A DNA stretch of 58,319 nt from Parcubacteria group bacterium. Lineage in GTDB: Bacteria > Patescibacteriota > Minisyncoccia > UBA6257 > Colwellbacteraceae. Position 1 is the first letter of the stretch. Each line of letters starts with the position of its first letter. The notes beneath the pieces were generated by a model. It did no database searches, was not told the DNA's origin, and saw only the letters and a list, made by a program, of their open reading frames with translations. Shown here one piece after another: positions 3,771-56,392 of the stretch. A program made the translations under genes and the position numbers. Location: assembly GCA_041649615.1 (NCBI GenBank), contig JBAZMT010000005.1, forward strand, positions 1-58,319. The letters run 5' to 3'.

Positions 3771-3798
3771 TGTTTCAAAATTAGGATTTTGAAATAAC

Positions 3799-4194: not shown

Positions 4195-4314
4195 AAAATA
4201 ATATGGCAACAAAAAGAGCAAATTCAAATTTACATAGAGCGGTTAATAAAAGATTAATAAATACAGCAACAGCCCTGAAATAAAAATTCATATTTATTTT
4301 ATGTTCTCGCTAGT

Positions 4315-4677: not shown

Positions 4678-4704
4678 AGTTTTTATATTATCACACTGGG
4701 TTTT

Positions 4705-6848: not shown

Positions 6849-7424
6849 CTAAAATTCCACCTTAACGTTTTGGCGTTCCTCTTCGCTTCCCGCTTCAAAG
6901 AAAGGCTCTTCTTTAAACTTGAAAATATTCGCAACAATCACCGAAGGGAAAGTATTAACTTTAATGTTAAGCTCCCGAACGTTTCCGTTGTAGAATCGGC
7001 GCGATGCCTGGATTTTATTTTCCGTATCGGTAAGTTCGCGTTGTAAATCAAGAAAATTAGCGTTCGCTTTGAGATCGGGATAATTTTCGGCAACGGCGAA
7101 AAGAGTTTTAAGCGTGGCCGAAAGATGATTCTCCGCTTCGGCGCGATTTATGGGATTTCCGCCGGCGCTTTGAATTTCCGCTCGAGCTTTCGTGACGTTT
7201 TCCAAGACGTCTTTTTCGTGAGACATATATCCCTTGACCGTTGAAACAAGATTCGGGATAAGGTCAAAACGGCGTTTTAGTTGAACGTCTATGTCCGAGA
7301 ATGCTTCTTTGACTCTCTTTTTTAAAACTATAAGGCGGTTGTAAGTTGCCGCGAACCAAATTAAAAGAACGGCAATGACCGCCAGAATTACGAAGATTAT
7401 GGTCATGCATTGATTATACATCAA
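6849..7424 (-). CDS. lemA: LemA family protein
   Basis: 191 aa with an N-terminal TM helix, [33 protein letters not shown] and [12 protein letters not shown]. It is adjacent to htpX, as is common. Confidence 0.85.
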
Positions 7425-7483
7425 AAACTGCAGAAACCTGGACCACCGCTTTCGCGGGGGTGACAGTAGAGAAAAGGGTCTTT

Positions 7484-9127
<1,644 letters not shown>

Positions 9128-9132
9128 TTATT

Positions 9133-9426
9133 TTATTCTTCTATAACGGCCAAAACATCATCTTCGCTTCCGATGAGATATTTTTTGCCGTCCATTTCCA
9201 GCTCGTCCGGACCGTATTTGCGGAAAAGTACTGTATCGCCGGGTTTGACGGACATCGGGACGAATTCCCCATTGTCATCTCTCTTCCCCGGTCCTACGGC
9301 CAAAATTTTGCCTTTTGTAGGCCTTTCTTTGTCCGCGGTATCGGGAATGACTATTCCCGACTTGGTGATTTTTTCCTCCTCCGCGGCCTCAAGAAGTATA
9401 TGATTTGAAAGAGGTTTGATGTTCAT
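9133..9426 (-). CDS. groS: Co-chaperonin GroES
   Basis: 97 aa. MNIKPLSNHILLE...SGIVIPDTA...GKILAVGPG is the typical pattern, and the gene sits directly upstream of groEL. Confidence 0.95.
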   Translation of the reverse strand: MNIKPLSNHILLEAAEEEKITKSGIVIPDTADKERPTKGKILAVGPGKRDDNGEFVPMSVKPGDTVLFRKYGPDELEMDGKKYLIGSEDDVLAVIEE

Positions 9427-9462
9427 TTTGTGTATTAGTTTTAATGATTTTTAAGTTTTTTG

Positions 9463-10092
9463 TCAATGGATATTGTAATAAGTTTCTATGCGATTGAGAC
9501 TGGTTATGACGCGCGTTTTCTGACCATTTTTTGCGAGTTCTTCGATGCGGCGTTGAATTTTTTTTGATTGTTTTTTGCGTGCAAAAGATTCAAATGTGTC
9601 GCCCAGTCTGCCTGAAAACATTTTTTCCGCGATTCGGATAAATCGGTTTTTTCCTCCGCCGACATAAAGCGAATATTCTCTGTAATCCGGAACTTTTTTG
9701 ATAACGTGAGTATTTGCCATAAAGAATTCTTCGCAGGCAGAATAGTCGCCATAAACGGGAAAAAGAAAAGGATATGATTCGGTCTCATAAGAATTTTCGG
9801 GGTCGTTCATTTTCAAATCGGACATACACATAAAGTGGCTGAGGCAGAGCTTGTTAGTTTCAGGTTTTGGAGGTTTGTTTCTTATATGAAGCAAGTCGCA
9901 AATGAAAAGCGTGAGAGCGCGGCAGAGATAGACCCGGTTATCTTTCACGCCGATGATTATATCAATGTCCGAACCGTTTTTGACGTTACCCGTGACGCAT
10001 GAGCCGGAAATGACAGCAAGTCTAACAAAAGGAACGTATCGGAATAGTGATATTCTTTTCTTGATTATTTTTTCTTTTTCCAAAGAGAGCAT
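9463..10092 (-). CDS. Nucleotidyltransferase-domain protein (Pol-beta superfamily)
   Basis: 209 aa. The GS...DxD signature appears in AVISGSCVTGNVKNGSDIDIIIG. Confidence 0.6.
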   Translation of the reverse strand: MLSLEKEKIIKKRISLFRYVPFVRLAVISGSCVTGNVKNGSDIDIIIGVKDNRVYLCRALTLFICDLLHIRNKPPKPETNKLCLSHFMCMSDLKMNDPENSYETESYPFLFPVYGDYSACEEFFMANTHVIKKVPDYREYSLYVGGGKNRFIRIAEKMFSGRLGDTFESFARKKQSKKIQRRIEELAKNGQKTRVITSLNRIETYYNIH

Positions 10093-10694
10093 TAGGCTCT
10101 TCTCAATGATTTCGGCTTTTTGCTTTTTTCAACGTAAACTCCTTCGTCCGCCTTTTTAATAAGATCGTCCAAAAAGTCTCTCCAGATTTTATCAAGCTTT
10201 TCGCGAGAAAACCCGAAGAAAGCGGTTTTTTCGGGAAATTCCGCTTGCGCAGAACCGAAGCTCCAACTCAAAGATTTTTTGGCGAGCGCTTTTTTAAGTT
10301 TTTCCATAACAATGTCGGCTCCCTCGCGATTCGTTCCCGGAAGCAAAATGATAAATTCGTCTCCTCCATACCGGCCGATGATGTCTGAATCGCGCGTAGC
10401 ACTTTGAAAGATTTCGGCCGAACGGCGGAGCATTTTGTCTCCTTCAATGTGGCCCTTCGTGTCATTAACTTTCTTAAGTCCGTCCATATCGGCGAGAATG
10501 AGACTTACGGAGAGATTATTTCTCTTGGCCGATTCAAGAGTTTTCAAGGCCATTTCCTTAAAAATGTTTCGGGTGTAAAGCTCCGTTCCTTCGTCGCGAA
10601 GCACGACGTCCGTACCGCTCCGTAAAATGAAAAGCGCCGCCTTTATGAAACTTTTGGCGCGACCAAGAAAGCTCCTTTTTATTTTTCTGATCAT
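10092..10694 (-). CDS. Stand-alone GGDEF-domain diguanylate cyclase
   Basis: 200 aa. It has LADMDGLKKVNDTKGH, an intact GGDEF (RYGGDEFIILLPG) and an RxxD I-site (RDSD) five residues upstream. No sensor domain is present. Confidence 0.8.
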   Translation of the reverse strand: MIRKIKRSFLGRAKSFIKAALFILRSGTDVVLRDEGTELYTRNIFKEMALKTLESAKRNNLSVSLILADMDGLKKVNDTKGHIEGDKMLRRSAEIFQSATRDSDIIGRYGGDEFIILLPGTNREGADIVMEKLKKALAKKSLSWSFGSAQAEFPEKTAFFGFSREKLDKIWRDFLDDLIKKADEGVYVEKSKKPKSLRRA

Positions 10695-11725
10695 TCCGCG
10701 TCAGGTTTTTCCAAGCTTACCGGTTCCATTCCGGGCGTCGTTCCCGTAATTCGGAGCACGTCTTTATCCACTTTACCGAGCTCCTTGTAAGCCTGGTTAT
10801 ACATACTGACGGAAGTTCCCAAATGTCCGCCTAATTTTTTCATATATTCTTCGTAACTTGCCAAATGTTTTCCCAGTTCTTCCACGCGGCGGCGGATTTC
10901 TTTGGCCGATTCTTCAATTTGCAAAGCGCGGAGACCTTGAAGGACGGTTTGAAGATACGCGAGAAAGCTTGTGGGTGAAACGATAATCACTTTCTTTTCC
11001 TTAAAAGCGTACTCAATCAAGTCCCTTGTCGCCACTTTAACCGCTCCCACTTTATTTACGAGAAGATCGTAATAAATCGCCTCCGAAGGAATGAACATAA
11101 AAGCGAAATCCATCGTGTTTTCTTCGGGACGAACGTATTTGGAGGTCTCGTCAATCCGGTTTTTGAGGTCGGTCTTGAACTGGCGCTCAAGTTCTTCCCT
11201 AGAGGCGGGGTCTTTCTCATTCAAAATTCGCTCGTAATTTTCCAGGCTGAATTTGGAATCAATGGGAATGATTTTGTCTTTCACAAAAACGACAGCATCA
11301 ACGATCTCGCCGTCCGAAAATTTATACTGCATTTCGTAAGAATTCGGCGGAAGAACGTTTTTTAAGGTTTCTTCCAAAAAATATTCGCCGAGCACTCCGC
11401 GTTGTTTCGGATTTTTTAAAATATCTTCAATGCCTTTAAGTTGGTCTGCAAGCGAAACAACCTGTTTTTGACCTTCGCTTACTTTGGTAAGTTCGCCCGT
11501 GATTTCCTTGATTATTTTCGCGCTTTCGCCGAATTGTTCCCTCATCATTTTGGGAACTTCGCCAAGGCGAGCGTCAAGCGTGCGAGAAAGCTCCGCCATC
11601 TGGTTTTGAAGAAGAATAAGCGAATCACTTTTGGGAGTTTCTTTGCGATTAGTGAATTTAAAAACAGCAAAAAGAATTGCCGCGCCGGCAACAACGCCCA
11701 AAACGACCGCCAAAACGATTTCCAT
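10691..11725 (-). CDS. rmuC: DNA recombination protein RmuC
   Basis: 344 aa with an N-terminal TM helix, a coiled coil, and the RmuC core (VDAVVFVKDKIIPIDSKF, FMFIPSEAIYYDL, IVSPTSFLAYLQ). Confidence 0.85.
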   Translation of the reverse strand: MEIVLAVVLGVVAGAAILFAVFKFTNRKETPKSDSLILLQNQMAELSRTLDARLGEVPKMMREQFGESAKIIKEITGELTKVSEGQKQVVSLADQLKGIEDILKNPKQRGVLGEYFLEETLKNVLPPNSYEMQYKFSDGEIVDAVVFVKDKIIPIDSKFSLENYERILNEKDPASREELERQFKTDLKNRIDETSKYVRPEENTMDFAFMFIPSEAIYYDLLVNKVGAVKVATRDLIEYAFKEKKVIIVSPTSFLAYLQTVLQGLRALQIEESAKEIRRRVEELGKHLASYEEYMKKLGGHLGTSVSMYNQAYKELGKVDKDVLRITGTTPGMEPVSLEKPDAE

Positions 11726-37777: not shown

Positions 37778-39268
37778 TTATGGCTTTTGTATGCAATAGG
37801 TGTTATAGGCGGCGTTAAAGTAATGAGTTATCTGGGACGAGACAGTATTTTGTTTTGATGGATCCTTAAAATAAACAATATTAGTGTCTGGATTAATCTT
37901 GCCTGTCGCGTCAAGAGTAAGGGACATTCCGTCCAAGACAAGGTAATGATTCCCGAAACGAGGTTGCCAGGTAAGGTCGCTTAGAGAAAATTTGATGCTG
38001 TTGGTTTTTGTGTGTCCGATCGCTACTCCTCCCGATTCAAAACAAGTTTTCAGGTCTTCCGGCGTTTCCGGTATAACGTAAGAAGTAAGCCCATATTGAG
38101 CGGGAATATTTTGAGAAACAAAAGCTCTTTCCACCGTGCCCTTGCCGCATATTCGATACCCTTTAGTGGTCATCAGGCTTCCAACTGTTGTAACGGCGTT
38201 TTCGGAAGTGGCGTATTGATTGCCCGTGAAGTAAAGAAGAACCATGGCAAAAGAAGTGGGAGCGCATCCGGACCAGGAGAAATTTTTGCATCCTGCTTTG
38301 CCGTATCTTATTTTCCCCCAGCGGGGATCTCCCTGCGCCAAGCGAATAACTCCCATTTGGATAGTAGGAATCTCATCGTTAGGTTTCTTTATGGGAATAG
38401 GTTCTACTGCCAAACAGTATTTTTGACTCGTGGGCTTGTTAAAAACGGGGCCGGTAGTGAAATTAATGCTGCTCGGGTTATTTGTGACTGGCGTGAATAA
38501 TTTATTCACGATGGCTTGCAGGCTTTGACCCGTTTGATTAAAAGCGATAATTATGCGTACGGTTTTTCCTTTGGATTCGTTTCGCAGTTCTTTTATGGGT
38601 ATGCATCTGTTGCTTATTCGAGTGTTTAAATCAGCGAGTATTTTTGCAACCGTTACGTTAGTAGGAATATTTATGATGGCAATGGTGCGGCTTCTTTCAT
38701 CCAATTTCATTTTTTTAGAGTCAACTTTCAAGTCCCCCGTCTTCGGATCACGCCCTAAAATATAAAATCTTTCCGGTTCGTAAGAATTGTCATCTCCGAC
38801 AAGAGGACTGTCAGCGGGTGGATCCATGTCTATGTCTTCATCCACCGAACCGATTTTTGGATCAATCTTCGGGGTACCTATAACCGCACCAAGATTCGTA
38901 ATGGATGGAAGAGAGATTCCTCCTATAGACGCTCCCAATTTTTCAAAAATATTAAGCGTTTGGGATATTGCTCCCATCTTCAGGCTCGTACCGGTTTTAG
39001 CAAGACTCGGATTTGTCCGATCATTTATCGTTGAAAGTCCGATGTCTACAGCTGAAATGATTAAATAACTTCCTGTGATTATCACGAGTCCTTGGATGGC
39101 CGCCCATGTCCAGGTCTCTTTTTCTTTGAGGCTTTTTTTCTTAGCGGTAGCTCTTTTTATCGCTCCATACGCAACAAGTCCGAGCGCAAATATCGCACTG
39201 ATCCCTAAAGCATAGAGAAAGATATTTTGAACAGGATTATTCGGGGAAAGCCATTCGGTAATGTTCAT
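37778..39268 (-). CDS. Pilin-hairpin / GyrA-tower-like / C39-like cysteine peptidase fusion protein, paralog 1
   Basis: 496 aa. The N-terminus (NPVQNIFLYALGISAIFALGLVAYGAIKR...AAIQGLVIITGSYLIISAV) has the two-TM VirB2/TrbC-like pilin layout. The C-terminus carries SGCAPTSFAMVLLYF (Cys), GNHYLVLDG (His) and KDP. Confidence 0.7.
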   Translation of the reverse strand: MNITEWLSPNNPVQNIFLYALGISAIFALGLVAYGAIKRATAKKKSLKEKETWTWAAIQGLVIITGSYLIISAVDIGLSTINDRTNPSLAKTGTSLKMGAISQTLNIFEKLGASIGGISLPSITNLGAVIGTPKIDPKIGSVDEDIDMDPPADSPLVGDDNSYEPERFYILGRDPKTGDLKVDSKKMKLDERSRTIAIINIPTNVTVAKILADLNTRISNRCIPIKELRNESKGKTVRIIIAFNQTGQSLQAIVNKLFTPVTNNPSSINFTTGPVFNKPTSQKYCLAVEPIPIKKPNDEIPTIQMGVIRLAQGDPRWGKIRYGKAGCKNFSWSGCAPTSFAMVLLYFTGNQYATSENAVTTVGSLMTTKGYRICGKGTVERAFVSQNIPAQYGLTSYVIPETPEDLKTCFESGGVAIGHTKTNSIKFSLSDLTWQPRFGNHYLVLDGMSLTLDATGKINPDTNIVYFKDPSKQNTVSSQITHYFNAAYNTYCIQKP

Positions 39269-39305
39269 CGGTGTGTTTTATTTTGTTTTTCTGCCGCTAT
39301 TTGTA

Positions 39306-40721
39306 TTAATACCTAAGAGTTGAATTACAGGTATTTGCGGGTCCAAAAGCGCCGCAGACCTCATAATATCCGCATGAACCGCATGAACTGACTGTTCGTT
39401 GCTTTCCACAGTTGTCAGGACCGGTGAAAGACCCGCATTCTAAACCGCGTCTGGAACAAAACGCGGTATCTGTTTCCGAAGTGCATCCGTTTTCGCAAAC
39501 CGCGTTAATATTCACGTCCGCTTTTTTGCCGCCCGCTCCTGTGCCGCTGATGCACCAGGTTGCCCTGTCGCGTTTAAAATAGTGCGCTATTTCCGATGAT
39601 TTAGTGCGACCCCCGGGGTCGGCTATGATAAATAAATTTTTAGTTTCGTCTATGCCTTTAACCACAATGTAGTGAGCATAATCCGTGAATTGAGGATGCC
39701 ACGTGTGGTCTTTTGGATCATCGTTTGAAGCCGCCATCGAACCGATCATCACTCCTCCTTTAAGGAAACAATTTTTCGCTTCTTTTTGATTATTAACTTC
39801 GGTGGATGTTAGGCCGTAGCTTTTGGGAATTCTCGTGAATGCCGATGAGTACACTCCGCTTGGCTCGTTACCGTTGCATTTTTTCATTCCGCCTTTAACT
39901 ATCTGCGCTCCTATGGTTTGAACAGCGGTGCTTTTAGTCAAATATTGGTTTTTTGTAAGATAAAGGATAGTCATGGCGAGAGACGTCGGTCCACATCCTC
40001 TGTTTCTAAACGTGTGTTGAGTCGGACAACCCGGCACGCATATTGGTTTGTCTCCCCAGGGGCTTTGGCCTTGATATAATTGCGGCACTGCGGCGGTGTA
40101 AACTAATTTATCGGACGGCGCTAATTCACCCGTTTCTCGAGGTGTAAGAAGTTGTCCGGCAATAGTATTTGCGTCAAAACCATCTTTGATGGTGATAACA
40201 ATTGAAATATTGTTTCCAACGGACTCATCTTTTATTGAATCCACTCCTTGAATGTTCGCTTCCGTTATGCGCGCGTTCAGATCGTTGATTAATTCTTCCT
40301 TCGTTACCCCTTCCGGCAACCATTTCAACGTGATTTTGCCCGGCTCTATCAGGACTTTACTTGTGTCATATATGGGAAGGCCGGTCCCAAAATCAATTCC
40401 TTCAAAAAAAGAGCCTTCAAGCGGTGGAGGAATTTCTAACGGGTCAACTAAAAGATCAAGAGGAGCGGAGCTAATTGTTAATATCCCGGGATTTACAACG
40501 GAGAGAATAATGAATCCACCGGCAAGAATCATAAGTCCTTTGGCGGCAGACCATATCCAGGACATCGCTTCTTTTTTTTGACTCGCATTATCTCGCGAGA
40601 GGATATATCTTATGCCTCCGTACATTACGACTCCGAAAGAGACAACGGCTCCCAGTCCAAGACCGAACAGGAATATATTCTGGACTCCTCCGATTGCTCC
40701 AAACCAGTCGTTGATGTTCAT
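39306..40721 (-). CDS. Pilin-hairpin / GyrA-tower-like / C39-like cysteine peptidase fusion protein, paralog 2, with a Cys-rich C-terminal tail
   Basis: 471 aa with GGVQNIFLFGLGLGAVVSFGVVMYGGIRY...AAKGLMILAGGFIILSVV, then RGCGPTSLAMTILYL, AHYIVVKG and ADPGG. The last ~70 aa contain 10 Cys. Confidence 0.7.
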   Translation of the reverse strand: MNINDWFGAIGGVQNIFLFGLGLGAVVSFGVVMYGGIRYILSRDNASQKKEAMSWIWSAAKGLMILAGGFIILSVVNPGILTISSAPLDLLVDPLEIPPPLEGSFFEGIDFGTGLPIYDTSKVLIEPGKITLKWLPEGVTKEELINDLNARITEANIQGVDSIKDESVGNNISIVITIKDGFDANTIAGQLLTPRETGELAPSDKLVYTAAVPQLYQGQSPWGDKPICVPGCPTQHTFRNRGCGPTSLAMTILYLTKNQYLTKSTAVQTIGAQIVKGGMKKCNGNEPSGVYSSAFTRIPKSYGLTSTEVNNQKEAKNCFLKGGVMIGSMAASNDDPKDHTWHPQFTDYAHYIVVKGIDETKNLFIIADPGGRTKSSEIAHYFKRDRATWCISGTGAGGKKADVNINAVCENGCTSETDTAFCSRRGLECGSFTGPDNCGKQRTVSSCGSCGYYEVCGAFGPANTCNSTLRY

Positions 40722-45092: not shown

Positions 45093-45604
45093 TCAAGATT
45101 TGGTTTTCCGCCAGTCTTCGGCGAATACTTGCTCCCACGTTTTACCTTTAAGTAGCACATCTAAGGCTAATTGAGGCGCTTTATGAGCAACGATAGCCAC
45201 ATGCTTTCCTCCGTAGTTTTGTTTTAGAAATTCTAAAAAATGGCAATACGGACTTTAACATCTTCATAACTTTCGCCATTTGGAAATTTTTCCGTGATCA
45301 TCTTTTCTTGAAGAGGTTCAACCGTTTCCGAGGGTTTGCCATTGTAGTCACCATAATTGCATTCACGAAGACGGGCGTCCTGGATTATTGGATAGATACC
45401 ATTCCAGGTAATAGTCGCTGACTGGACTGCTCTTTTCAGATCGGAGCAAAAGACGACATTAAACTTTTTGTCTTTTGTTTGGCCCCTTAATGCCTCCGAC
45501 TGCTCTATCCCTTTTTCGGATAGTTTTACATCCGACCAACCGGAAGAAACATCTCTTTGATTATCTGTCGTCATGCCATGGACAAAATATGTAATCTTTA
45601 TCAT
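45093..45604 (-). pseudogene. Histidine phosphatase (phosphoglycerate mutase family) gene with a frameshift in a homopolymer
   Basis: The first frame reads MIKITYFVHGMTTDN...RIAIF, then stops. Adding one T to the T6 run (plus-strand A6 at 45235..45240) continues as LEFLKQNYGGKHVAIVAHKAPQLALDVLLKGKTWEQVFAEDWRKTKS, ending at 45093. SD GAGGGAG precedes ATG 45604. Confidence 0.7.
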
Positions 45605-45897
45605 TGCTCCCTCGGTAGGAATTTCACTGCTCAATAAATTGCATCCGCAATTTATCTGCGTTTTAAAACCTTACGATTTTAATATTTACACCATGGAAAA
45701 TCTCTCGGTTTTCCGACCCATCTCGCCGAAGGCTAGCCGAGGCGGACCCTTTCCCTGTTCGATCCCTTCCGATACAAGTGTACAGAAAAAGTAGAAAACA
45801 AAAAAGCGCACATGCTCCTTTTTGTTTTCGGCTATGAACATGTCTGAAGCTTAAAATCGTTATTTTAAGCGTAGCGGTTTATATCGTTATGTGGAAC

Positions 45898-46405: not shown

Positions 46406-46691
46406 ATTCTTTATTTTAAGCATTGATTGATGAAAGACACACGACCAGATGTCTTAATGCTGATTATACCAGAAAGTGCCATGCTGATCTCGCTTATCCA
46501 GTAAAATTTTCCGTGTCGGTGGGAATTATATGGCAGATTTGTGGAATCGGGTATTTTGTAATAACAAACTATAATAACTTTTTAATTAAACTAACGCGAG
46601 AATGGCCAGATGGAAAAAACTCTTCTTGTCGGACAAATACTTTGTAACCGTTTTTTTACTGTCGTTGAGACGAATGCGTTGGTGAAAAATA

Positions 46692-46835
46692 ATGCTCCAA
46701 ACTCTGGACGCCGTTAGAACTATCATCCTGCAGGGTCGGAGGCCCTACGAGATGGAAGCGGCCGTTAAAATGTTAAGAGGAGAGGAACCTTTCGCTGGAG
46801 AAACGATCAAGTGGATGGAGGCCGCAAAGCATTAG
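46692..46835 (+). CDS. Possible 47-aa ORF (or gene remnant)
   Basis: MLQTLDAVRTIILQGRRPYEMEAAVKMLRGEEPFAGETIKWMEAAKH, with GGTGA 6 nt upstream. It is GC-richer than its flanks and convergent with the 1178-aa gene. Confidence 0.25.
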   Translation: MLQTLDAVRTIILQGRRPYEMEAAVKMLRGEEPFAGETIKWMEAAKH

Positions 46836-46849
46836 GCCGACTTATTTTC

Positions 46850-49800
46850 TTAATCACCGTTTATTACTTCTTTAAGATTCCAAAACATACTGTTGCCTTT
46901 TTCAATCAAAAGGTTAATAAGATCGATAACTTTCTGCTTCATCGCTGTATCGCCAGCCTTATAAATTATGTCGAGGGATTGTTTAATTTCATTGTCGAGA
47001 TTAAATAATGGCGCACGTCGATTCTGGTTCAAATTACCAGTTGAATCCAATAGGAAATGCTGGATTATTTCTAAAGTCTTTTCTCCATTTTTTTGAGCAA
47101 AGACGGGGAGCCTTCTCATAAGACCGTAATCCCAGTCGATATCTCCATTTGATTTCTCAAGCGTCTCTGCTACTCGTCCAATCACCTCTTCATCACTCAA
47201 GACTTCTTTATTTGGATTTATCCAAAATCCAAAACCCGCAAGGGGCTCCGGCTCCCTAACGTTCTCCAATGCCCAATCCCAAAACTTCAATAGTTTATCC
47301 TTACTAACTTTATTTTCATTTAGCCATTCATCTCCAGCTTGATCTCGAATTAAGCAGCTGCGACCAATGAAGGATATGAACTCTTGATATCTCTTAGAAT
47401 TAGACGTGCTCCAAAATTGCTGAAATAGCGAGTCCTCGATTTCAAGACCTAAATGAGCGAAAGCAAGCGCGATGTGGACCGCTAGGGATTCATCAAGCCC
47501 CTTGGAGTACTTTCGCCCTGTGTAGATCTTCGGATCAAGAGTAATCGCGTGGCTATAATAAGCACTAAGGTCGATAAAAAGTTTATCGTAGAGAGTATTG
47601 GAAAGATATCCTTCCCAGCTTGCTAGATAAAGGTCTTTTTTAGCAGGATCATCTTTAGGGAATATTTCCGGCAAAAGCCCAGTAACAAATTCCTTATCTC
47701 GAAAATAAAAGGTCGCCAAGTATCGACCAATGACAAACCGAACCGCAAGCGAATCATCAGCAAGAGCCTGCTTAAATAAAGCCTTTGTATCGTCGGCCAA
47801 AGTCTTGCCATCATTCTCAGTGAACACGACAAACGCCTCGTATGCCCGGCCACGCACAGAATTAATCGCCACATGATAAGGCTCACCGTACTCTGGTTTC
47901 TCATGCTCCTTGGAAGGACTATCTTTTATAGACAGAAGGTATGAAATTAAATCCTTTATTTTTATTCGGTTTTGTTTGTGATTATCATCTCGTGTTTCTT
48001 TATTCTCGAGAATGTATAACAGAGCGTCGGTTATTACCTTATGAACTTCAATCCAGTCTGCAAGCCATGATTTATCGTCTTTACGCCTAAAAGGAGTTGC
48101 CTCGCCGCTTTTTTTGATCGCGTCGCAGAGACCTAATAATTGTTCTATCTGAATTAGCGTCAATATTTGTTTATTACGAAGCATCTCTTCAATGCCGCGC
48201 AGAAGTGAATATACATAAGCAGGATGAATATTATCTCGATCGAAGAAAGAAGTGATTTTGCTTAGGTATTCATCGGTGCGCTTTTTAACGTCCTCTTTAA
48301 TAGAATCACCCAAACCTTCCACACCTCGAGGGCTAAGAAAATCGTCATCTTTAAACTGCTCCTTTAATTTCTCTGGAGACCAGTCTGATTTTAGATTTGC
48401 AATAATTTGGTCAACAGCGTAATCCGCTACATTCACCGGGGACCTGTGAGCAACAAAACCAGATTGAATTTTTCCTACAGAAGGCTGAGGAGTATATTCT
48501 GCGTCACACTTGCTTCCAAATATTTCTTCACATTTTTCCGCCTCTTCTACTGTAAGGTGAGTACAAATGCTAGATATAATCTCCCAGCCTGTACGTTTAT
48601 GCCAGGCCTGATCTGGATGCTCCTCCGCTTTCTTCGAAAAATAACTGAATACCTGAGCGACATAAGTACGCTGATCAGCGTCGTCAAGGTAATAAAATCC
48701 AATTTTTAGAGTTTTTTTGTATTCAGTCCCACCTTCAATATCGTAGTAATTTTCTACCTCAAATAATTTGAAAAAGGCGGCCTTAAGTTCTGTCTTAAAT
48801 ACAGTCGGGCATTGAGAAAGAGCAAACATTCTTAAACGCCATGTTGCCCGACAAGTTGGAAGAGTATCAATATATTCAAACAGCCTCTTGGCATTAGCAG
48901 GAGTATCACATTTCTTGCCGATCGTTCCTTCGATCAATTTCTTTATAATCGCAGCAAGATTTTTTATATCCTCTCGGTATGAATAACTGTGTTTATCTTC
49001 AATCTCTAAGGTGAAAATATCGACATCATACAAAGAAAATAGATCTGAATATTGAAATGCTCCAGAATCGTCTGGCGTAGCTAACTTAACAATCTCACTC
49101 ATGACGGCCGTAGTTATTTGCAAGGCTTTTTCCTTATGCAAATCATCAATACCTTCTAATGCCTCAAAAATACCGGAAGCATCAAGATCACTAGCATAGA
49201 ACGGATCGTCCATACCAAAACCAGCAGCTTTTTCAGCCATCTCCGCTTTGCTTTTAGCTAACAGCATCGCCTGTGCTAATTCCAAAATAGCGTCATTCTC
49301 TCTTTTCTCTACTAACTTTTCTACGATTCGAGTAAATTCATAACCGCTTTTACGGAAACTGCGCATAAGATAAACCCACTTCTCATCACGAATCTTTGCT
49401 GTGAGCGTCTTTATTTGTTCTGCCGGAAGCGAACCGATAATCCACATAAAGCGGTCTACCACTTCAGGATTGAAATTTGCTTCAGAGATCGAAGCAGATG
49501 TAATAATCTCAGCAACCTTGATTGGGTTCTTATTGACCATTCGAAGCAGATATTCCAATTCTGAAAGTCGATAAGAATAACTAGTTGTATTTTCTGCTTT
49601 CTTTTTTATCTCATCGAGAAAGCCGTTCTTCCAAAGCCACTCAATCCGAGTTTCATTGGCCTGCGAAAAGAAGTAACGCTTAGCGTCATAGCTCAAAGAG
49701 AACAGTAACCACAAGTATGACGCATCCTGATTATTCTCTTTAAGGAAAGCGTCGATCTTCTCGTGAATCTTGAGAGGATCAAGCGATGATTCCTTCAGTG

Positions 49801-50386
49801 TATTTTCAAATACTTGAACAAGATTATTAAAATCTTTTTCTGTGGGAAAATCCTTCTCATCTACAGTTATCCCAAGCTGTTTAAATATTCTTATAGCACC
49901 TTCCTTACTTTTCTTTTCTGCAAAGTGATGCGAGATTTTTGTAAAAGCTAAATGGGTTTTATATAGGGTGTTGGCAATGATTTTTGCACGTTTCTGTTCG
50001 TGAAGGACTTCAAGGACGCCTCCAATTTTCTCTCTTTTTGTCTGAAGGTTAAGAAGCTTATTGAGAGAATTATTTTTAAACCCAAACTTACTTAACAATG
50101 AATAAAGCTTAACCTTAATTTTGAAATAAACATTCTGATCCTTTTGGCCCCCTAGTCTATAAAGCAGTTCCCGGTAAGAATGAGCAGACTGAGCCATCCA
50201 ATCAGGGTTAGAAGTGGCACTATGTACAACAGCTAGCGCACCTTTAATCAGGTCAGATGGCAAAACTCCATCCGGACAAATTTTTTCTTTCTCGTTAAGA
50301 CGATCCAAATAATTACAAATCCACTCTTGATGTGACTCAAGTTTAAGTGGTCGATCTATCTTGATGTCTAAGTCCTTATCTTCCAT
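46850..50386 (-). CDS. 1178-aa orphan protein, apparently all alpha-helical repeat, with no catalytic or NTP-binding motif recognised
   Basis: It is one uninterrupted ORF in an AT-rich island. I found no Walker A, HEXXH, PD-(D/E)XK, HNH or TM segment. It is divergently transcribed from the LexA-methyltransferase gene. Confidence 0.75.
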   Translation of the reverse strand: MEDKDLDIKIDRPLKLESHQEWICNYLDRLNEKEKICPDGVLPSDLIKGALAVVHSATSNPDWMAQSAHSYRELLYRLGGQKDQNVYFKIKVKLYSLLSKFGFKNNSLNKLLNLQTKREKIGGVLEVLHEQKRAKIIANTLYKTHLAFTKISHHFAEKKSKEGAIRIFKQLGITVDEKDFPTEKDFNNLVQVFENTLKESSLDPLKIHEKIDAFLKENNQDASYLWLLFSLSYDAKRYFFSQANETRIEWLWKNGFLDEIKKKAENTTSYSYRLSELEYLLRMVNKNPIKVAEIITSASISEANFNPEVVDRFMWIIGSLPAEQIKTLTAKIRDEKWVYLMRSFRKSGYEFTRIVEKLVEKRENDAILELAQAMLLAKSKAEMAEKAAGFGMDDPFYASDLDASGIFEALEGIDDLHKEKALQITTAVMSEIVKLATPDDSGAFQYSDLFSLYDVDIFTLEIEDKHSYSYREDIKNLAAIIKKLIEGTIGKKCDTPANAKRLFEYIDTLPTCRATWRLRMFALSQCPTVFKTELKAAFFKLFEVENYYDIEGGTEYKKTLKIGFYYLDDADQRTYVAQVFSYFSKKAEEHPDQAWHKRTGWEIISSICTHLTVEEAEKCEEIFGSKCDAEYTPQPSVGKIQSGFVAHRSPVNVADYAVDQIIANLKSDWSPEKLKEQFKDDDFLSPRGVEGLGDSIKEDVKKRTDEYLSKITSFFDRDNIHPAYVYSLLRGIEEMLRNKQILTLIQIEQLLGLCDAIKKSGEATPFRRKDDKSWLADWIEVHKVITDALLYILENKETRDDNHKQNRIKIKDLISYLLSIKDSPSKEHEKPEYGEPYHVAINSVRGRAYEAFVVFTENDGKTLADDTKALFKQALADDSLAVRFVIGRYLATFYFRDKEFVTGLLPEIFPKDDPAKKDLYLASWEGYLSNTLYDKLFIDLSAYYSHAITLDPKIYTGRKYSKGLDESLAVHIALAFAHLGLEIEDSLFQQFWSTSNSKRYQEFISFIGRSCLIRDQAGDEWLNENKVSKDKLLKFWDWALENVREPEPLAGFGFWINPNKEVLSDEEVIGRVAETLEKSNGDIDWDYGLMRRLPVFAQKNGEKTLEIIQHFLLDSTGNLNQNRRAPLFNLDNEIKQSLDIIYKAGDTAMKQKVIDLINLLIEKGNSMFWNLKEVINGD

Positions 50387-50407
50387 AATTTCAGTTTCTA
50401 ATTATCC

Positions 50408-50448
50408 ACACTTACATTTTCGTAAGATTTTCGGTATACTATAAGTGT
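50408..50448. promoter_or_regulatory. Divergent control region: putative promoter embedded in nested inverted repeats (candidate operator)
   Basis: On the plus strand, TTACAT (50412-50417), a 17-nt spacer, then TATACT (50435-50440). The inner inverted repeat is CTTAC(50411-15)-N6-GTAAG(50422-26). The outer one is ACACTTA(50408-14)...TAAGTGT(50442-48). Confidence 0.4.
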
Positions 50449-50479
50449 ATCACCTAAATTTAAAAACATCGATCAATCT

Positions 50480-52009
50480 ATGCCTATACCAATTACTAAA
50501 AGACAAAAAGAGGCTCTGGACTTTATAAAGAAGTTTATCCGTAAGAAAAAATACCCTCCAACATTGGAGGAAATATGTTTGGGGCTTAAGCTTTCGGCGG
50601 TCTCAACTGTCCATCAGCATATAAAGGCCTTGGCCGAAAAGGGTTATTTAAAAAAGGTTGGAAATAATGCTCGAGCTATTCATATCTACGAATCTGAGCC
50701 TATGATCCAAATTCCCTTCTTGGGAACAATCGCGGCAGGAGAGCCAATCGAAGCAATCAGACAAAACGAGTTTATATCAGTACCAAAGGCAAAACTACCG
50801 AAAAGCGGGCAAGTTTATGCTTTGCGTGTGAGCGGCAATAGTATGATTGATGAAAATATTAAAGACGGAGATGTTGTTTTGGTAAAACAGCAAGAGGTGG
50901 CAGAAAACGGCCAGCGAGTAGTTGCTTTGATAGATAACTATGAAGCAACCCTAAAGAAATTTTATAAAGAGCGTGCGCAAATTAGATTACAACCCGCAAA
51001 TTCAGCCTACGAGCCGATAATCATTAGAAAAGATCGGGATATAAAAATTCAGGGAATTGTTGTTGACGTTATTCAAAATGAAAAAGAACTACTAGCGGAG
51101 AAGATAGAAACAGCGACTGTAAAAAGAACAAAAACTTTGCCACTCAATAAAATTATTTTAGGAGACGCGGTGGCAGAACTAAAAAAGCTCCCAAGTGAAA
51201 GTTGTGATGTTATCATAATCGACCCCCCTTACAATATCGGCAAAGATTTTGGGAATAATATTGATAAAAGAGAATTGAGCGAATACGTTGCTTGGTGTAA
51301 AGAATGGATAAACGAGTGTATTCGTGTGATGAAGCCGACAGCAACTATGTTTATTTACGGTTTTAGCGAAATCCTTGCTCATTTGTCGGTAGGGATACCA
51401 ATAAACAAACGTTGGCTTATTTGGCACTACACAAACAAAAATATTGCCTCTCTTAATTTTTGGCAAAGAAGCCACGAGGCAATTATTTGTGCGTGGAAAG
51501 ATAAACCGACTTTTAATCGCGATGAAGTTAGAGAGCCATACACCGAAGGGTTTTTGAATGGAGCCGCGGGGAAAGTGAGGAGAGGAACACTCGGCAGATT
51601 TAGTAAAAATGGAATAGAAACTGTTTACAAAGCACATGAAGGCGGAGCATTACCTCGCGATGTCATTAAAATTGCCGCTTTAGCCGGTGGAGCGGGAATG
51701 GTTGAAAGGTGGTTTTTGTGCAAAACTTGCAATGATGTTTTTGAACCGCAAGAACTACAAAAACACAGCGGACACAAAATTATGAAGCACCCAACACAAA
51801 AACCGCTTGAACTTTCGCGAAAACTTATAAAATCGGCAATGCCTAAAAAAGACGGGGTTGTCTTAGTGCCGTTCGTTGGTACTGGCTCGGAGTGTGCGGC
51901 CTCAAAAGAATTAGGACAATCTTACATCGGATTTGAAATAAACCCGGACTATGTGCGAATAGCGGAAAAAATGGTTGATAGTGTAAGAATTGCTCCTAAA
52001 TTATTTTAG
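50480..52009 (+). CDS. Fusion protein: full-length LexA (wHTH + S24 autopeptidase) joined to a beta-class N6A/N4C DNA methyltransferase
   Basis: Residues 1-200 carry the LexA wHTH, the FLGTIAAGEPIEA cleavage site (A-G), the Ser box RVSGNSM, the Lys in EATLKKF and the ending IQGIVVDVI. Residues ~215-509 carry motif IV IIIDPPYNIG, HPTQKPLEL and motif I VLVPFVGTGSE. Confidence 0.85.
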   Translation: MPIPITKRQKEALDFIKKFIRKKKYPPTLEEICLGLKLSAVSTVHQHIKALAEKGYLKKVGNNARAIHIYESEPMIQIPFLGTIAAGEPIEAIRQNEFISVPKAKLPKSGQVYALRVSGNSMIDENIKDGDVVLVKQQEVAENGQRVVALIDNYEATLKKFYKERAQIRLQPANSAYEPIIIRKDRDIKIQGIVVDVIQNEKELLAEKIETATVKRTKTLPLNKIILGDAVAELKKLPSESCDVIIIDPPYNIGKDFGNNIDKRELSEYVAWCKEWINECIRVMKPTATMFIYGFSEILAHLSVGIPINKRWLIWHYTNKNIASLNFWQRSHEAIICAWKDKPTFNRDEVREPYTEGFLNGAAGKVRRGTLGRFSKNGIETVYKAHEGGALPRDVIKIAALAGGAGMVERWFLCKTCNDVFEPQELQKHSGHKIMKHPTQKPLELSRKLIKSAMPKKDGVVLVPFVGTGSECAASKELGQSYIGFEINPDYVRIAEKMVDSVRIAPKLF

Positions 52010-52693
52010 AGATTGATCTATTTCTGCCCTCTCTCTTTCAAAAGCAAAAGGAGTAAAAACAACAAATCCATTGGGAAGTCTCTTTAATTCTTTATTCGTC
52101 ATAAATCTTGAATAGGGCAACTTATATGCACCGTCTTTTTTCTTTGGATTAACAAAATAATCATCGCTCGGTACTTCGTATTTTATATCAATAAATTTTC
52201 CGTCTATAATTTTCTTTGATTTTTTCTCCGCTCTAACCTCTCTGCTAAAAGTCGCTTTCTTAACTTGATAATTCAATATCACTCCATGGTATTTGACTTG
52301 AAAGTCGGCCCCTTGATGATCTAACTCCGCTGACATTGCAACCGTTCCGTCGCCGTAGACTGATTCCGCAACATAACCGGCATGAATTTGCGTAATGATG
52401 CTTGCCCATGTGCGATAAATTCTCGCCGGAAGTCCGCGATAAAAACAATCCTTGCACATTGTTATCTTTTGTCGGAATGATTCAATTTCTGATTTTTTAG
52501 AACCGAGATACTCTTCATAAAAATCCTCAAAGTCTAAAAATTTCTTTTGGTCCCAATAGACTTTGTACAGCATTTCTATCACCTGTATTTCTTTGGGCAA
52601 GTCCATTTCAACGAGTTTAATTGGCCTATATTTTTCGCGATAGACCTTAAGATCAACCGACTCTAAAAATTTTGTAAATTTATTTAGCAACAT
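52001..52693 (-). CDS. Putative type II restriction endonuclease (cognate of the fused methyltransferase)
   Basis: 230 aa, directly downstream of a C-protein gene and convergent with the methyltransferase (9-nt overlap). A possible PD-(D/E)XK-like core is ELDHQGADFQVKY...NYQVKK. The call rests mainly on context. Confidence 0.5.
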   Translation of the reverse strand: MLLNKFTKFLESVDLKVYREKYRPIKLVEMDLPKEIQVIEMLYKVYWDQKKFLDFEDFYEEYLGSKKSEIESFRQKITMCKDCFYRGLPARIYRTWASIITQIHAGYVAESVYGDGTVAMSAELDHQGADFQVKYHGVILNYQVKKATFSREVRAEKKSKKIIDGKFIDIKYEVPSDDYFVNPKKKDGAYKLPYSRFMTNKELKRLPNGFVVFTPFAFERERAEIDQSLK

Positions 52694-52696
52694 AAG

Positions 52697-52915
52697 TTAT
52701 ACGAAATACGAAACAGGCTTTTTGTAAATTTCCGCAATATTTTTTAACTCGGCAACATCAAGACGCCTTTCGCCGGACTCTATTTTTGAGATATAGGATT
52801 GCGGTTTGCCTAATTTATCGGCTACCGCCTGTTGGGATAAGCCAGCTTCAATACGCGCCGTTTTTAAACGCTCTATAATGTCTTTGTAATCTTTTGAGTA
52901 AGCTGACTTGCTCAT
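52697..52915 (-). CDS. XRE-family HTH controller (C) protein of the R-M system
   Basis: 72 aa. ARIEAGLSQQAVADKLGKPQSYISKIESGERRLDVAELKNIAEIY has the size and position (4 nt upstream of the R gene) typical of C proteins. Confidence 0.75.
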   Translation of the reverse strand: MSKSAYSKDYKDIIERLKTARIEAGLSQQAVADKLGKPQSYISKIESGERRLDVAELKNIAEIYKKPVSYFV

Positions 52916-53208: not shown

Positions 53209-53215
53209 ACATTTG

Positions 53216-53287
53216 CTCCCCCGGTAGGATTCGAACCTACAACCCACTCCTTAACAGGGAGTCGCTCTACCATTGAGCTACAGGGGA
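53216..53287 (-). tRNA. tRNA-Asn (anticodon GUU), no encoded CCA
   Basis: On the minus strand: acceptor TCCCCTG, TA, D arm GCTC-AATGGTA-GAGC, G, anticodon arm ACTCC-CTGTTAA-GGAGT, variable GGGTT, T arm GTAGG-TTCGAAT-CCTAC, acceptor CGGGGGA, discriminator G. Confidence 0.9.
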
Positions 53288-53798: not shown

Positions 53799-55169
53799 TT
53801 ATTTTTTCTTTCTCCTTCTCAAAAAGGCGGGAATGTCCCAGATGTCGTGTTTGTCTTCTTCCTCTTCCTTTTTAACTTCTCTCGTCGCTTCTCCGCTCGT
53901 GAAAAGGTTTTCAATTCTTTTATCCTCTTCGGAAGAAACAGGTTTTATCTCTTCTTCTTTCGGTTTTACGATCGGCTTAATCGGCGTTGGTTCGTCCGCA
54001 AATCTTGCGGGAGAGAAAAGAGCGATGTCTTTTTCCCTTTCTTTGGCGACACCGAGCCCGTTGAATCCGGTGGCTATCAAATTTATTTTCAGATGTCCTT
54101 TGGGAACTTTTCGGTCAAAATAAGCGCCGAAGATTATCCGCGCGCCCGGATCGGTATTCTCGGTAATGATTTTCGCCGCTTCGTTAACTTCGGACATTTT
54201 AAGGTCCGCGCCACCGGAAATGCCAAAAAGCACTCCCTTTGCTCCTTCTATGGAGCGTTCGAGAAGCGGAGAGTTAATGGCTTGCGTGGCGGATTTGATG
54301 GCGCGATCCGCGCCGGAAGATTGGCCGACTCCGACAATGGCGACCCCCGTTCCCTGCATGATCGCCCTGATGTCGGCAAAATCAACGTTTACGAGTCCGG
54401 GACTTGAAATTATTTCCGAAACTCCCTGAACGGTGCTTTTAAGCACGTCGTCAATTTTCAAAAAAGCTTTGTTAATGGAAGTATCGTTTCCGATAATGGA
54501 AAATACGCGATCGTTCGGAATAACGATAAGCGAATCAACTTTGTCGCGGAGACGAAGAACTCCGTCCTCGGCGATTCTCGTTCTTTGCGAACCTTCAAAA
54601 GCGAACGGTTTCGTTACCACCGCAACCGTGAGCGCTCCCACTTCGCGCGCCGCTTCAGCAACTATGGGCGACGCTCCCGTACCCGTTCCGCCTCCCATGC
54701 CGGCCGTAAGAAAAATAAGATCGGCTCCCTGAAGCGCTTCAATGATTTCGGCGCGGGATTCTTCGGCCGATTGTCTTCCGATTTCCGGATTCATTCCGGC
54801 TCCCAGTCCTCTCGTCAGATTACGACCGATATTTATCCGGTGTCTTACGCTCGCTTTTTCCAAATCCTGAATATCGGTGTTAAGGGCAATAAAATCTATT
54901 CCGCGGGGAAAATCATCGTACATTCGGGAAACCGCGTTGTTTCCGCAGCCGCCAACGCCGACAACTTTAATTTTTACAACCGGCATATCGCCCAGTTCTT
55001 TATTTAAAACATAAAGCTTGGGCGTAGAGATAACGGAAGAAGTTTTTCGTGAACGTTTTTTTCTGGAATATGATTTTCTTGCAGGAGATTTCTTTGAACG
55101 ACGTGTCGTTCTTTTATTTGTTCTTTTTGTTTTTTTCGGAGTGCGCTTGGAAGTTCTTTTTTTGGCCAT
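53799..55169 (-). CDS. ftsZ: Cell division protein FtsZ with a ~45-60 aa K/R/S/T-rich N-terminal extension
   Basis: 456 aa with the core IKVVGVGGCGNNAV, GGTGTG and NVDFADI, and the C-terminal peptide DIPAFLRRRKK. The ATG overlaps the ftsA stop (TAATG). Confidence 0.93.
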   Translation of the reverse strand: MAKKRTSKRTPKKTKRTNKRTTRRSKKSPARKSYSRKKRSRKTSSVISTPKLYVLNKELGDMPVVKIKVVGVGGCGNNAVSRMYDDFPRGIDFIALNTDIQDLEKASVRHRINIGRNLTRGLGAGMNPEIGRQSAEESRAEIIEALQGADLIFLTAGMGGGTGTGASPIVAEAAREVGALTVAVVTKPFAFEGSQRTRIAEDGVLRLRDKVDSLIVIPNDRVFSIIGNDTSINKAFLKIDDVLKSTVQGVSEIISSPGLVNVDFADIRAIMQGTGVAIVGVGQSSGADRAIKSATQAINSPLLERSIEGAKGVLFGISGGADLKMSEVNEAAKIITENTDPGARIIFGAYFDRKVPKGHLKINLIATGFNGLGVAKEREKDIALFSPARFADEPTPIKPIVKPKEEEIKPVSSEEDKRIENLFTSGEATREVKKEEEEDKHDIWDIPAFLRRRKKK

Positions 55170-56392
55170 TATGGCAATATGTTCTTTAATATTCTCGTTA
55201 AACGGGCCTTTCCGCTAGATTTTACCCTTAAATTTCCGTCATCGCTTGAGAGAAGAATAAGTCCCAGAACGGCGGCATAATCCGGCGATTCCACGTATTC
55301 TAGCAGACTCTGGTCTTGAACTTCAAAACTGCTCGCCTGGGGTAATCCGACCATGGCGGTGATTTTCAAGCGATCCTTAGCAAGGTCCACAATTCCTGGC
55401 AATTTGGCTCCTCCGCCCGCTAAAACGGCCCCGGCCGGGAGCTTGCCCGAAAAACCAACGGCCTTAAGATCGTTATCCACGAATTCAAAAATCTCCTCAA
55501 GACGGGATTCAATGACTTCGGCCACAAATCTCCTTGACGGGGCGCCGATCATGTTCAAATCCACTTTGCGGAGGTCTATCGTTTCCCTGCTCGGCACGTC
55601 TTTTGCCACGGCGTAGCCGTAGGCTATTTTTATTTTTTCGGCGATTGTTACCGGAATTTTAAGAGCCACTGCGATGTCGTTTGTAATGTGTCCCGCGCCT
55701 ACCGGATAAATAGCCGCGTGAATAAGTTTATCTTCCTCATATACCGCCACTCCGGTCGTGCCAAAGCCGATGTCTATCATCACCACGCCGAGTTCTTTTT
55801 GATTTTTAGTGAGAACCGCACGTGCCGAAGCGAGAGGACTATAAATCAATCCGCCTATACTGCCGCTCGTAATCTCCACGCATTTTCTCAAATTTTTGAC
55901 GGAAGGCGTAAAAGCGTCAACGAGAAAACTCGTAACTTCCAGTCTGGATCCGATCATACCCAAAGGGTCTTTAATGTCTGAAATGCCATCAACCGTAAAT
56001 TCTTTGGTAATGGTGTGGAGAATCATCCTGTTCGGCCCCAAATTAATCGCTTCGGAAGCTTGAGTGGCGCGAGCGATGTCATCCGTTCCGATTTCGGAGT
56101 TCGCGCGCGCAACGGCAACGATGCCTTTAGAAAGCTGCGTCCTTACATCCGTTCCGCCGATGTTTAAGAATATATTCTTGATCGCCGGCCGGTAAAAATT
56201 TCTTATTTCCTGCAAAACGTTCCCGACCGCTTTGGCCGCATCGTCAATGCTTACGACAATCCCCTTCCTTATGCCGGCGGAAGGTTTTGTCAATCCGTAA
56301 ACAAGTTTAATTTTGTCTTTTACCGGTTCGGCAACAACAGCTTTAATGCTGTCTCCGCCGATGTCTAGACCTAAAACCGTGTTGTGCGCCAT
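55169..56392 (-). CDS. ftsA: Cell division protein FtsA
   Basis: 407 aa with the actin-fold phosphate-1 motif VLGLDIGGDSIKAVV, then IDIGFGTT and the C-terminal part. Confidence 0.9.
   Translation of the reverse strand: MAHNTVLGLDIGGDSIKAVVAEPVKDKIKLVYGLTKPSAGIRKGIVVSIDDAAKAVGNVLQEIRNFYRPAIKNIFLNIGGTDVRTQLSKGIVAVARANSEIGTDDIARATQASEAINLGPNRMILHTITKEFTVDGISDIKDPLGMIGSRLEVTSFLVDAFTPSVKNLRKCVEITSGSIGGLIYSPLASARAVLTKNQKELGVVMIDIGFGTTGVAVYEEDKLIHAAIYPVGAGHITNDIAVALKIPVTIAEKIKIAYGYAVAKDVPSRETIDLRKVDLNMIGAPSRRFVAEVIESRLEEIFEFVDNDLKAVGFSGKLPAGAVLAGGGAKLPGIVDLAKDRLKITAMVGLPQASSFEVQDQSLLEYVESPDYAAVLGLILLSSDDGNLRVKSSGKARLTRILKNILP

Follow-up and report, generated by a model that had tools for sequence, protein, structure and literature searches.

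Among the described antiphage receptors, Avs7 (antiviral STAND family 7) and Dsr1 (defence-associated sirtuin 1) are the closest to the protein presented here. The sensor of Avs7 (residues 561-1523 of SeAvs7) is bilobed and helical and envelops the phage major capsid protein, and EcDsr1 has a homologous sensor with the same trigger as SeAvs7 (PMC13581612). According to this paper, published in Nature in 2026, 9,097 proteins bear an Avs7-type sensor; it also occurs in proteins without a nucleoside triphosphatase (NTPase), which have HEPN, transmembrane (TM), EAD, MBL or unknown ('Unk') N-terminal domains (PMC13581612). A protein of comparable build, here called P0001, is encoded in a 58,319-nucleotide stretch of DNA from a Parcubacteria group bacterium (assembly GCA_041649615.1, contig JBAZMT010000005.1, positions 1 to 58,319), which was analysed as a whole and is referred to as the window. 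The P0001 gene (46850-50386, reverse strand) starts with ATG and encodes 1178 residues. It is the longest open reading frame (ORF) of the window, as the initial annotation had stated. We estimate at roughly 55% the probability that P0001 is a Dsr1-type immune receptor, a single chain without an NTPase that combines an Avs7/Dsr1-type sensor with a helical head and rides on restriction operons.

Sensor Body

P0001 is not a single uniform scaffold. It consists of two parts, a head of 200 residues and a sensor of ~975 residues, which begins directly after the head with no NTPase in between. The relation of this sensor to Dsr1 is visible in the distant members of the family. Of 43 such proteins, 24-34% identical to P0001, 12 match the Dsr1 model PDLC04166 in a PADLOC scan, with a best E-value of 2.8e-23. 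P0253 and P0249, which were examined individually, match this model at profile positions ~897-1013 of 1227. In P0001, the matched stretch lies at residues ~835-955, which are conserved more strongly than any other block, and in the profile it is located far from the N-terminus, where Dsr1 has its SIR2 domain.

A second link leads to archaeal proteins. A tblastn search of plasmids with P0253 found proteins of ~1500 residues in Natronorubrum (P0282, 1510 residues) and Haloferax (P0283, 1483 residues). In both, TM helices at the N-terminus and a GxGGVGKSG P-loop precede a long C-terminal region. The close-family alignment A1 (240-1057) was aligned by hhalign with P0282 (593-1388) over 724 collinear columns, at a probability of 98.2% and an E-value of 2.7e-14. 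BLASTP aligned residues 277-950 of P0001 itself with residues 607-1268 of P0283 (E 8e-20, 724 columns). Since relatives of the P0283-type protein bear Pfam nSTAND5, nSTAND1 or AAA_16 domains, the archaeal proteins are STAND NTPases with a P0001-type sensor, and they would represent Avs7 proper.

Collinear homology extends across the ~900-residue helical sensor. Judged from these alignments, the P0001 body can be assigned to the Avs7/Dsr1-type sensor superfamily, as an NTPase-less member. Both defining features of the two namesakes, the SIR2 NADase domain of Dsr1 and the STAND NTPase of Avs7, are absent from P0001. The idea that this large protein serves as an anti-phage sensor, which had been put forward before any database search, is backed by the homology with this type of sensor (PMC13581612).

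Domains known from elsewhere were not detected. Searches with P0001 against Pfam, NCBIfam and PADLOC gave no match at E<=1, regular-expression and hydropathy checks revealed neither a TM segment nor a Walker A, HD, CxxC or DEAD motif, and a comparison of the sequence with PDB chains yielded nothing significant (a single match, E 0.78). The protein had been described as motif-less, and this description holds for known motifs. It does not hold for motifs of the family's own, which are strong: AINSVRGR and WEGYLS in the body and R72/E73/H153 in the head. The net charge of P0001 is -24, and this acidic charge, together with the absence of a DNA-binding motif from the checks made, would fit a protein ligand.

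The AlphaFold2 model of P0001, for which 56 homologs were used, is all-alpha, with a mean predicted local distance difference test (pLDDT) score of 87.8 and a predicted template modelling (pTM) score of 0.58. Low-confidence linkers are located at residues 387-391 and 638-643. HEAT/ARM-type alpha-solenoids are long superhelices of paired helices, and the model can be assigned to this fold class. A Foldseek search of the PDB gave 148 matches at E<=0.001, with E-values down to 1e-6 and TM-scores of merely 0.15-0.23. The best 50 of these 148 are all long helical-repeat proteins, mostly HEAT/ARM solenoids; the matches named are TBCD, FANCI, CRM1, SF3B1, CAND1 and importins. This result points to a common fold class and not to a specific relative. 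The HEAT/TPR-like solenoid that had been guessed from the sequence was thus confirmed as a class by the structure prediction and Foldseek comparison that the initial annotation had proposed, with generic HEAT/ARM matches only.

Head Domain and Split Forms

The homologs of P0001 fall into two size classes, one of ~1150-1200 and one of ~975-985 residues, and the short class is devoid of the first ~200 residues. In 74 non-redundant loci, collected for a survey of fusions and neighbourhoods, head and sensor are fused in 28, and about 30 have a translationally coupled upstream partner. One such split pair is encoded in L003. Almost all short sensors are preceded by a gene on the same strand, at a distance of -22 to +12 nucleotides in all but one locus. 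Most of these partners can be aligned with residues 1-200 of P0001 and have the motifs NP[DE]W..[QH].A.S.RE and HH in common, which read NPDW..Q.A.S.RE and HH in the P0001 head. The change between the fused and the split state occurred at least 17 times on a tree of 63 sensor bodies.

Other proteins can take the place of the head. A CHAT protease is the split partner in four loci, instead of the R..H head. The PF12770 scores of these partners are 33.2 bits in L035 and 31.4 bits in L046, above the cutoff of 24, and 21.8 bits in L051 and 18.3 bits in L019, below it. About five further loci have yet another partner, a helical protein with a TM anchor, and some of the split heads have an added N-terminal TM helix. 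A CHAT domain with its His/Cys dyad is absent from P0001 and occurs solely as a separate partner in relatives.

R72 and H153 are invariant and E73 is conserved in at least 90% of 43 fused and split heads, whose mean column identity is only 17%. Modelled alone by AlphaFold2, the head forms an all-alpha bundle (pLDDT 87.3, pTM 0.81). No significant structural neighbour of this model was found by Foldseek in the PDB (best E 0.68) or in BFVD (best E 0.52). The top non-significant neighbours include HD-type (p)ppGpp hydrolases, namely Mesh1 (5vxa) and 3nqw in the PDB and a Clandestinovirus (p)ppGpp synthetase/hydrolase in BFVD; with probabilities of at most 0.16 and TM-scores of ~0.2 they are a weak lead at most and were not relied on. 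A HEPN identity was rejected, as the head contains no conserved Rx4-6H and its invariant R and H are ~80 residues apart. The head was also sought in other architectures, where all 23 matches turned out to be fused members of the P0001 family.

These features leave room for another reading, in which the body is a sensor and the head a mere adaptor or membrane tether that recruits a separate effector, either the product of a downstream nuclease-type gene or the nuclease of a restriction-modification (R-M) system. The absence of a structural match and of a recognisable catalytic motif would agree with it, as would the N-terminal TM helix of several split partners and the variable nuclease-like genes (DpnI-like, Mrr_cat, SNase, DUF2779) just downstream of the sensor in some loci. 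We regard this as rather doubtful. Nothing effector-like follows the gene in the window, CHAT proteases, which are established effectors, occupy the exact position of the head in the four split relatives, and the retention of R, H and E across such divergent heads is a pattern typical of active sites.

Association with Restriction-Modification Systems

To describe the surroundings of the family, ORFs within 6 kb were clustered over the 74 loci and the cluster representatives annotated with Pfam. The most frequent neighbours are N6/N4 methyltransferases (22 loci) and large serine recombinases (18 loci), followed by the split head (13), PLD-SNF2 helicase-nucleases (11), Eco57I/TaqI_C-type methyltransferases (11) and type III Res (5). 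Other ResIII proteins, Schlafen-type helicases, Dam methylases, GmrSD/HNH, HTH-SocA and SNase are found in three loci each. In L005 and L009, a DUF2779 protein of ~490 residues is encoded downstream of the sensor, at a distance of one to several genes.

Eleven loci contain an operon of a PLD-SNF2 gene, an Eco57I-type methyltransferase gene and the sensor, in this order. In L007, a Fic gene precedes the same three genes and the sensor is entered with an 8-nucleotide overlap, and in L008 a gap of 5 nucleotides separates the R-M operon from the sensor. The Pfam annotation of individual contigs agrees with this. It includes type III Mod-Res followed by head and sensor, and an MmeI-type enzyme followed by a 215-residue gene, head and sensor. 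In other cases, type I HsdS is followed by DUF4238, HsdR and sensor, or an EcoRI-methyltransferase by GmrSD/HNH and sensor. A reading of the PLD-SNF2/Eco57I-methyltransferase/sensor operons as DISARM or BREX was rejected, because the sensor changes from one R-M type to another and DUF1998, PglZ or BrxC-like genes were not observed in its vicinity.

R-M-like ORFs were defined by phmmer with all R-M-like clusters as seeds. On the upstream side of the sensor, their share is 19-26% in the first three 2-kb bins, compared with 1-5% downstream and beyond 6 kb upstream. Flanks were usable in 53 loci. An R-M-like gene is located at most 6 kb away in 41 of them, and in 21 such a gene is co-directional and ends at most 1.5 kb upstream of the sensor. 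Large serine recombinases occur within 6 kb in 15 of the 53, and only six have neither an R-M-like gene nor a recombinase. The adjacency to R-M genes is not a matter of chance in this family.

The identity of the R-M partner changes readily. At least 29 changes of upstream context occurred on the tree of 63 sensor bodies, and well-supported sisters are located behind different systems, as in L010 (type I) and L014 (type III), in L058 (type III-like) and L079 (LexA-methyltransferase), and in L068 and L066. This swapping between sister sensors points to an autonomous module, repeatedly placed at the tail of restriction operons, and not to an R-M subunit. P0001 itself has no methyltransferase, nuclease, translocase or specificity domain. 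The pattern argues for co-regulation or co-transfer and not for a dedicated partnership with the methyltransferase of the window. Of the functional link to the R-M neighbour that had been suggested in the initial annotation, the non-random adjacency stands, and a dedicated partnership is disfavoured by the exchange of partners.

A closer bond would exist if P0001 were an accessory or guard of the restriction system, which would physically work with the R-M enzymes and provide a backup response to lost integrity or to anti-restriction proteins, as PrrC does for EcoprrI. Its polar, co-directional and often overlapping position at the 3' end of R-M operons, as in L007 and L008, would suit such a role, and so would the head-to-head arrangement with a LexA-methyltransferase gene, seen in two distant clades along with a conserved promoter block. 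Such a guard is nevertheless unlikely. Sister sensors stand behind type I, type III, PLD-SNF2/Eco57I, GmrSD or LexA-methyltransferase systems, R-M-like genes are absent from the surrounding 6 kb in 12 of the 53 well-flanked loci, and the homologous sensors of Dsr1 and Avs7 act autonomously (PMC13581612).

The Locus in the Window

A complete TaqI-type R-M cassette, with M, R and C genes, is oriented head-to-head with the P0001 gene (Table 1). The cassette lies in a low-GC island that is bordered by a tRNA-Asn gene; the GC content is 0.38-0.40 across ~44-54 kb, compared with ~0.45 in the rest of the window. The defence-island context that had been proposed for the gene is therefore borne out by the cassette and the low-GC stretch. 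An att-like direct repeat of the tRNA-Asn end was sought for the island, and none was found.

Table 1. Positions of the P0001 gene, its parts and the neighbouring features in the window.
Feature	Position	Strand	Remarks
P0001 gene	46850..50386	-	1178 residues; N-terminal head and predicted Avs7/Dsr1-type solenoid sensor
N-terminal head	49787..50386	-	residues 1-200; helical bundle, R72/H153 invariant; putative effector or adaptor
Sensor body	46850..49786	-	residues 201-1178 and stop; alpha-solenoid, equals the stand-alone 975-985-residue proteins of the split forms
Most conserved core	47522..47884	-	residues ~835-955; AINSVRGR ... SLAVRFVIGRYL ... WEGYLS; coordinates approximate, mapped via the full-length homolog P0253
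Divergent intergenic region	50387..50479	.	93 bp, between the P0001 gene and the LexA-methyltransferase gene
Conserved promoter block	50411-50448	.	TTACAT-N17-TATACT and tandem ATTTTCG repeat; candidate shared promoter/operator
LexA (winged helix-turn-helix and S24 peptidase) fused to N6/N4 DNA methyltransferase	50480-52009	+	Pfam, NCBIfam and PADLOC searches
TaqI-family restriction endonuclease	52001-52693	-	PF09573, E 3e-38
HTH_3 controller (C) protein of the R-M cassette	52697-52915	-	
tRNA-Asn	53215-53287	-	borders the low-GC island
ftsZ and ftsA	53799-56392		beyond tRNA-Asn

The head-to-head arrangement is not restricted to the window. In L079, a locus of a distant clade whose proteins are 37-39% identical to their counterparts, the sensor gene likewise faces a LexA-N6/N4-methyltransferase gene, the product of which is 37% identical to that of the window. 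Both intergenic regions contain a methyltransferase-proximal block, TTACAT[T/C]TTCG..A.AT.TTCGGTATACT...AGTGTA, which is located at 9845-9885 in L079. Inside the promoter spacer, this block has a tandem AT[T/C]TTCG repeat with a spacing of 11 bp. The repeat is a candidate operator for the LexA-type domain, unlike the classical SOS boxes. As the block is only 25-60 nucleotides away from the start codon of the sensor in the window, shared control is plausible, and the sensor gene probably shares the operator region of the LexA-methyltransferase gene.

In L079, an ORF of 214 residues (7708-8352, reverse strand) overlaps the LexA-methyltransferase gene by 4 nucleotides and is unrelated to the TaqI enzyme. 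It presumably encodes a different restriction endonuclease, in which case the LexA-methyltransferase design would serve more than one R-M specificity.

The shared region allows a more far-reaching version of the receptor, which is possible and which we put forward tentatively. The R72/E73/H153 head would then provide a new immune effector chemistry on an NTPase-less sensor of the capsid type, riding on restriction operons of the Candidate Phyla Radiation (CPR). In the window, the protein would be wired to DNA damage through the operator of the self-cleaving LexA-methyltransferase, such that failed restriction or prophage induction would raise the amount of sensor.

The other flank of the P0001 gene consists of ordinary small genes, encoding a histidine phosphatase, an S51 peptidase, EamA, MscL and SIMPL. 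The His_Phos_1 ORF (45233-45634, reverse strand) has just 133 residues, compared with 206-322 residues in the homologs that L034, L064 and L072 have downstream of their sensors, and is perhaps a truncated gene on the border of the island. A relatively GC-rich ORF of 48 codons (MLQTLDAVRTI...; 46690-46835, forward strand) converges on the sensor gene at its 3' end. Further away, at 37778-40721 on the reverse strand, tandem paralogs of 496 and 471 residues combine a weak DNA_topoisoIV (GyrA-like) segment with Peptidase_C39_2.

The site just downstream of ftsA-ftsZ contains different defence cargo in three genomes. In the window, this is the C, R and LexA-M genes with the sensor, in L007 (1-2378) it is Fic, PLD-SNF2, Eco57I-methyltransferase and sensor, and in L026 it is the sensor with unknown small genes. 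Because the defence genes differ in each genome, the site appears to be a hotspot for integration, conserved among these bacteria.

Distribution of the Family

A word-indexed search with P0001 found 244 relatives, the best of them 45-91% identical and nearly all from Patescibacteria. Their source names, where given, are 'hypothetical' throughout. An exhaustive HMMER scan of 1.8 billion cluster representatives gave 1044 clusters at E<=1e-3, of which 233 at E<=1e-30. A pattern scan of 185,579 GTDB species representatives located 72 loci, mostly in Patescibacteria, with a few from Omnitrophota, Aminicenantes and Caldilineaceae. The distribution is patchy and crosses phyla. Eight divergent or extended members were scanned with Pfam for informative fusions; none exceeded the threshold, and a sub-threshold pP_pnuc_1 was seen in P0185 only.

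A phage origin of the family finds no support, as tblastn gave no match in 50,697 phage records and relatives occur on just two of the 2.9 million IMG/VR contigs. One of these two contigs, L085, has three co-directional ORFs of 1090, 1020 and 1165 residues at 1629-11435. These are the sizes of a PLD-SNF2/Eco57I-methyltransferase/sensor operon, so the contig probably represents a defence island in a predicted provirus. In L010, the homolog is located beside an SU10-type prophage.

The identity of 45-91% within Patescibacteria and the position downstream of ftsZ in the window, in L007 and in L026 would also be expected of a housekeeping scaffold of these bacteria, for instance one of cell division. 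Such a function is very improbable in view of the mere 72 loci of the pattern scan and of the relatives in unrelated phyla. The neighbourhoods are highly variable, with recombinases and R-M genes, and the gene of the window lies in a low-GC island beside a tRNA gene. In addition, STAND immune proteins have a sensor homologous to the body, and the ftsZ-proximal site holds different defence genes per genome.

Proposed Mode of Action

In the favoured reading, that of an NTPase-less receptor of the Dsr1 type, the sensor (residues ~201-1178) would clamp a newly made structural protein of the phage. By analogy with SeAvs7 and EcDsr1, the most likely ligand would be the HK97-fold major capsid protein, which is the default guess from homology. 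The head (residues 1-200) would sit where Dsr1 has its SIR2 domain and where Avs7 has effector and NTPase. Binding of the ligand is assumed to cause a conformational change that frees or oligomerises the head, and the freed head would stop the infection at the expense of the cell. Usually co-transcribed behind an R-M operon, the module would form a second line of defence after restriction; in the window, it is oriented divergently instead.

Several points weigh against this reading. P0001 itself stays below the PADLOC Dsr1 model, and its link to Dsr1 is transitive, through relatives of 24-34% identity, in addition to the direct link to STAND-attached sensors. The comparison with Avs7 and Dsr1 was made through the PADLOC profile and the archaeal STAND proteins, not through bona fide Dsr1 or SeAvs7 sequences or structures, and sequence and profile searches of PDB chains with P0001, A1, A4 and P0282 gave nothing useful. 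Among the fused proteins, the body is more conserved than the head (mean pairwise identity of 39-41%, and 47% in the 830-1060 core, versus 30%), which is unusual for a conserved catalytic warhead. The head, for which a known enzymatic fold was not found in the PDB or BFVD, could be an adaptor and not an effector, and the conserved R72, E73 and H153 could serve docking instead of catalysis. As for the ligand, different Avs-type sensors recognise different phage proteins.

Novelty and Comparison with Known Systems

The sensor superfamily and its NTPase-less members have already been published (PMC13581612), so P0001 does not represent a novel type of system. As far as checked, a CPR-centred clade with an unmatched R72/E73/H153 head has not been described; the supplementary tables of PMC13581612 and PMC12803255 stood outside this comparison. 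To the same extent, it appears undescribed that the protein is frequently split into coupled genes and that CHAT or TM proteins can stand in for the head. This also applies to the systematic attachment to restriction operons, the LexA-methyltransferase arrangement included.

CPR bacteria, or Patescibacteria, have tiny genomes. To our knowledge, few defences beyond R-M systems have been recognised in them. The present family would mean that Patescibacteria widely carry a receptor of the pattern-recognition type, related to Avs7/Dsr1, that is NTPase-less and has an exchangeable output module. It supplies a new candidate effector domain, and its naturally occurring fused and split versions lend themselves to the question of how a sensor without an NTPase switches on its head. 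It is also a clear case of a sensor that is systematically stacked, at the level of transcription, behind all types of restriction system. Finally, more than 1000 clusters of 'hypothetical proteins', counted at 50% identity, leave the pile of unknowns.

Among the known systems, PrrC is an abortive-infection gene embedded in the EcoprrI R-M locus. It resembles the P0001 family as a second-line module attached physically and transcriptionally to restriction operons. In contrast to PrrC, P0001 has no anticodon-nuclease or ABC-ATPase domain, and its family is attached to many R-M types and not to a single one. The four split relatives in which the solenoid is paired with a coupled CHAT protease are reminiscent of TPR-CHAT (Csx29) and other CHAT-protease modules, which combine helical repeats with a caspase-like part. 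P0001 differs from Csx29 in having neither CHAT domain nor CRISPR association, and in its solenoid, which belongs to the Avs7/Dsr1 type and not to the TPR type of Csx29.

DSR2 consists of a SIR2 effector head and a long HEAT-type solenoid that binds the phage tail tube, with no NTPase. This build, a head on a HEAT-type solenoid without an NTPase, is that of P0001 as well. However, P0001 has no SIR2 domain, shows no match to DSR2 structures by sequence or among the top 50 Foldseek matches, and belongs to a different sensor lineage.

Avs7 has a homologous sensor of similar size with variable N-terminal modules, and P0001 is collinear over more than 700 residues with the sensor of the archaeal TM-STAND-sensor proteins. 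Unlike Avs7, P0001 is devoid of a STAND NTPase and of a Walker A motif. The ATP-driven tetramerisation of Avs7, as published, can therefore not apply to P0001.

From Dsr1 (PDLC04166), P0001 differs in the absence of SIR2, which is replaced by an unrelated helical domain, and in a family centred on Patescibacteria, where the head is often a separate gene, exchangeable for CHAT or TM partners. The likeness lies in the overall design. Both are single-chain, NTPase-less proteins with an N-terminal module and a C-terminal helical sensor of ~900-1000 residues, both reside in defence islands, and members of the P0001 family match the Dsr1 profile itself, at positions ~897-1013 of 1227.

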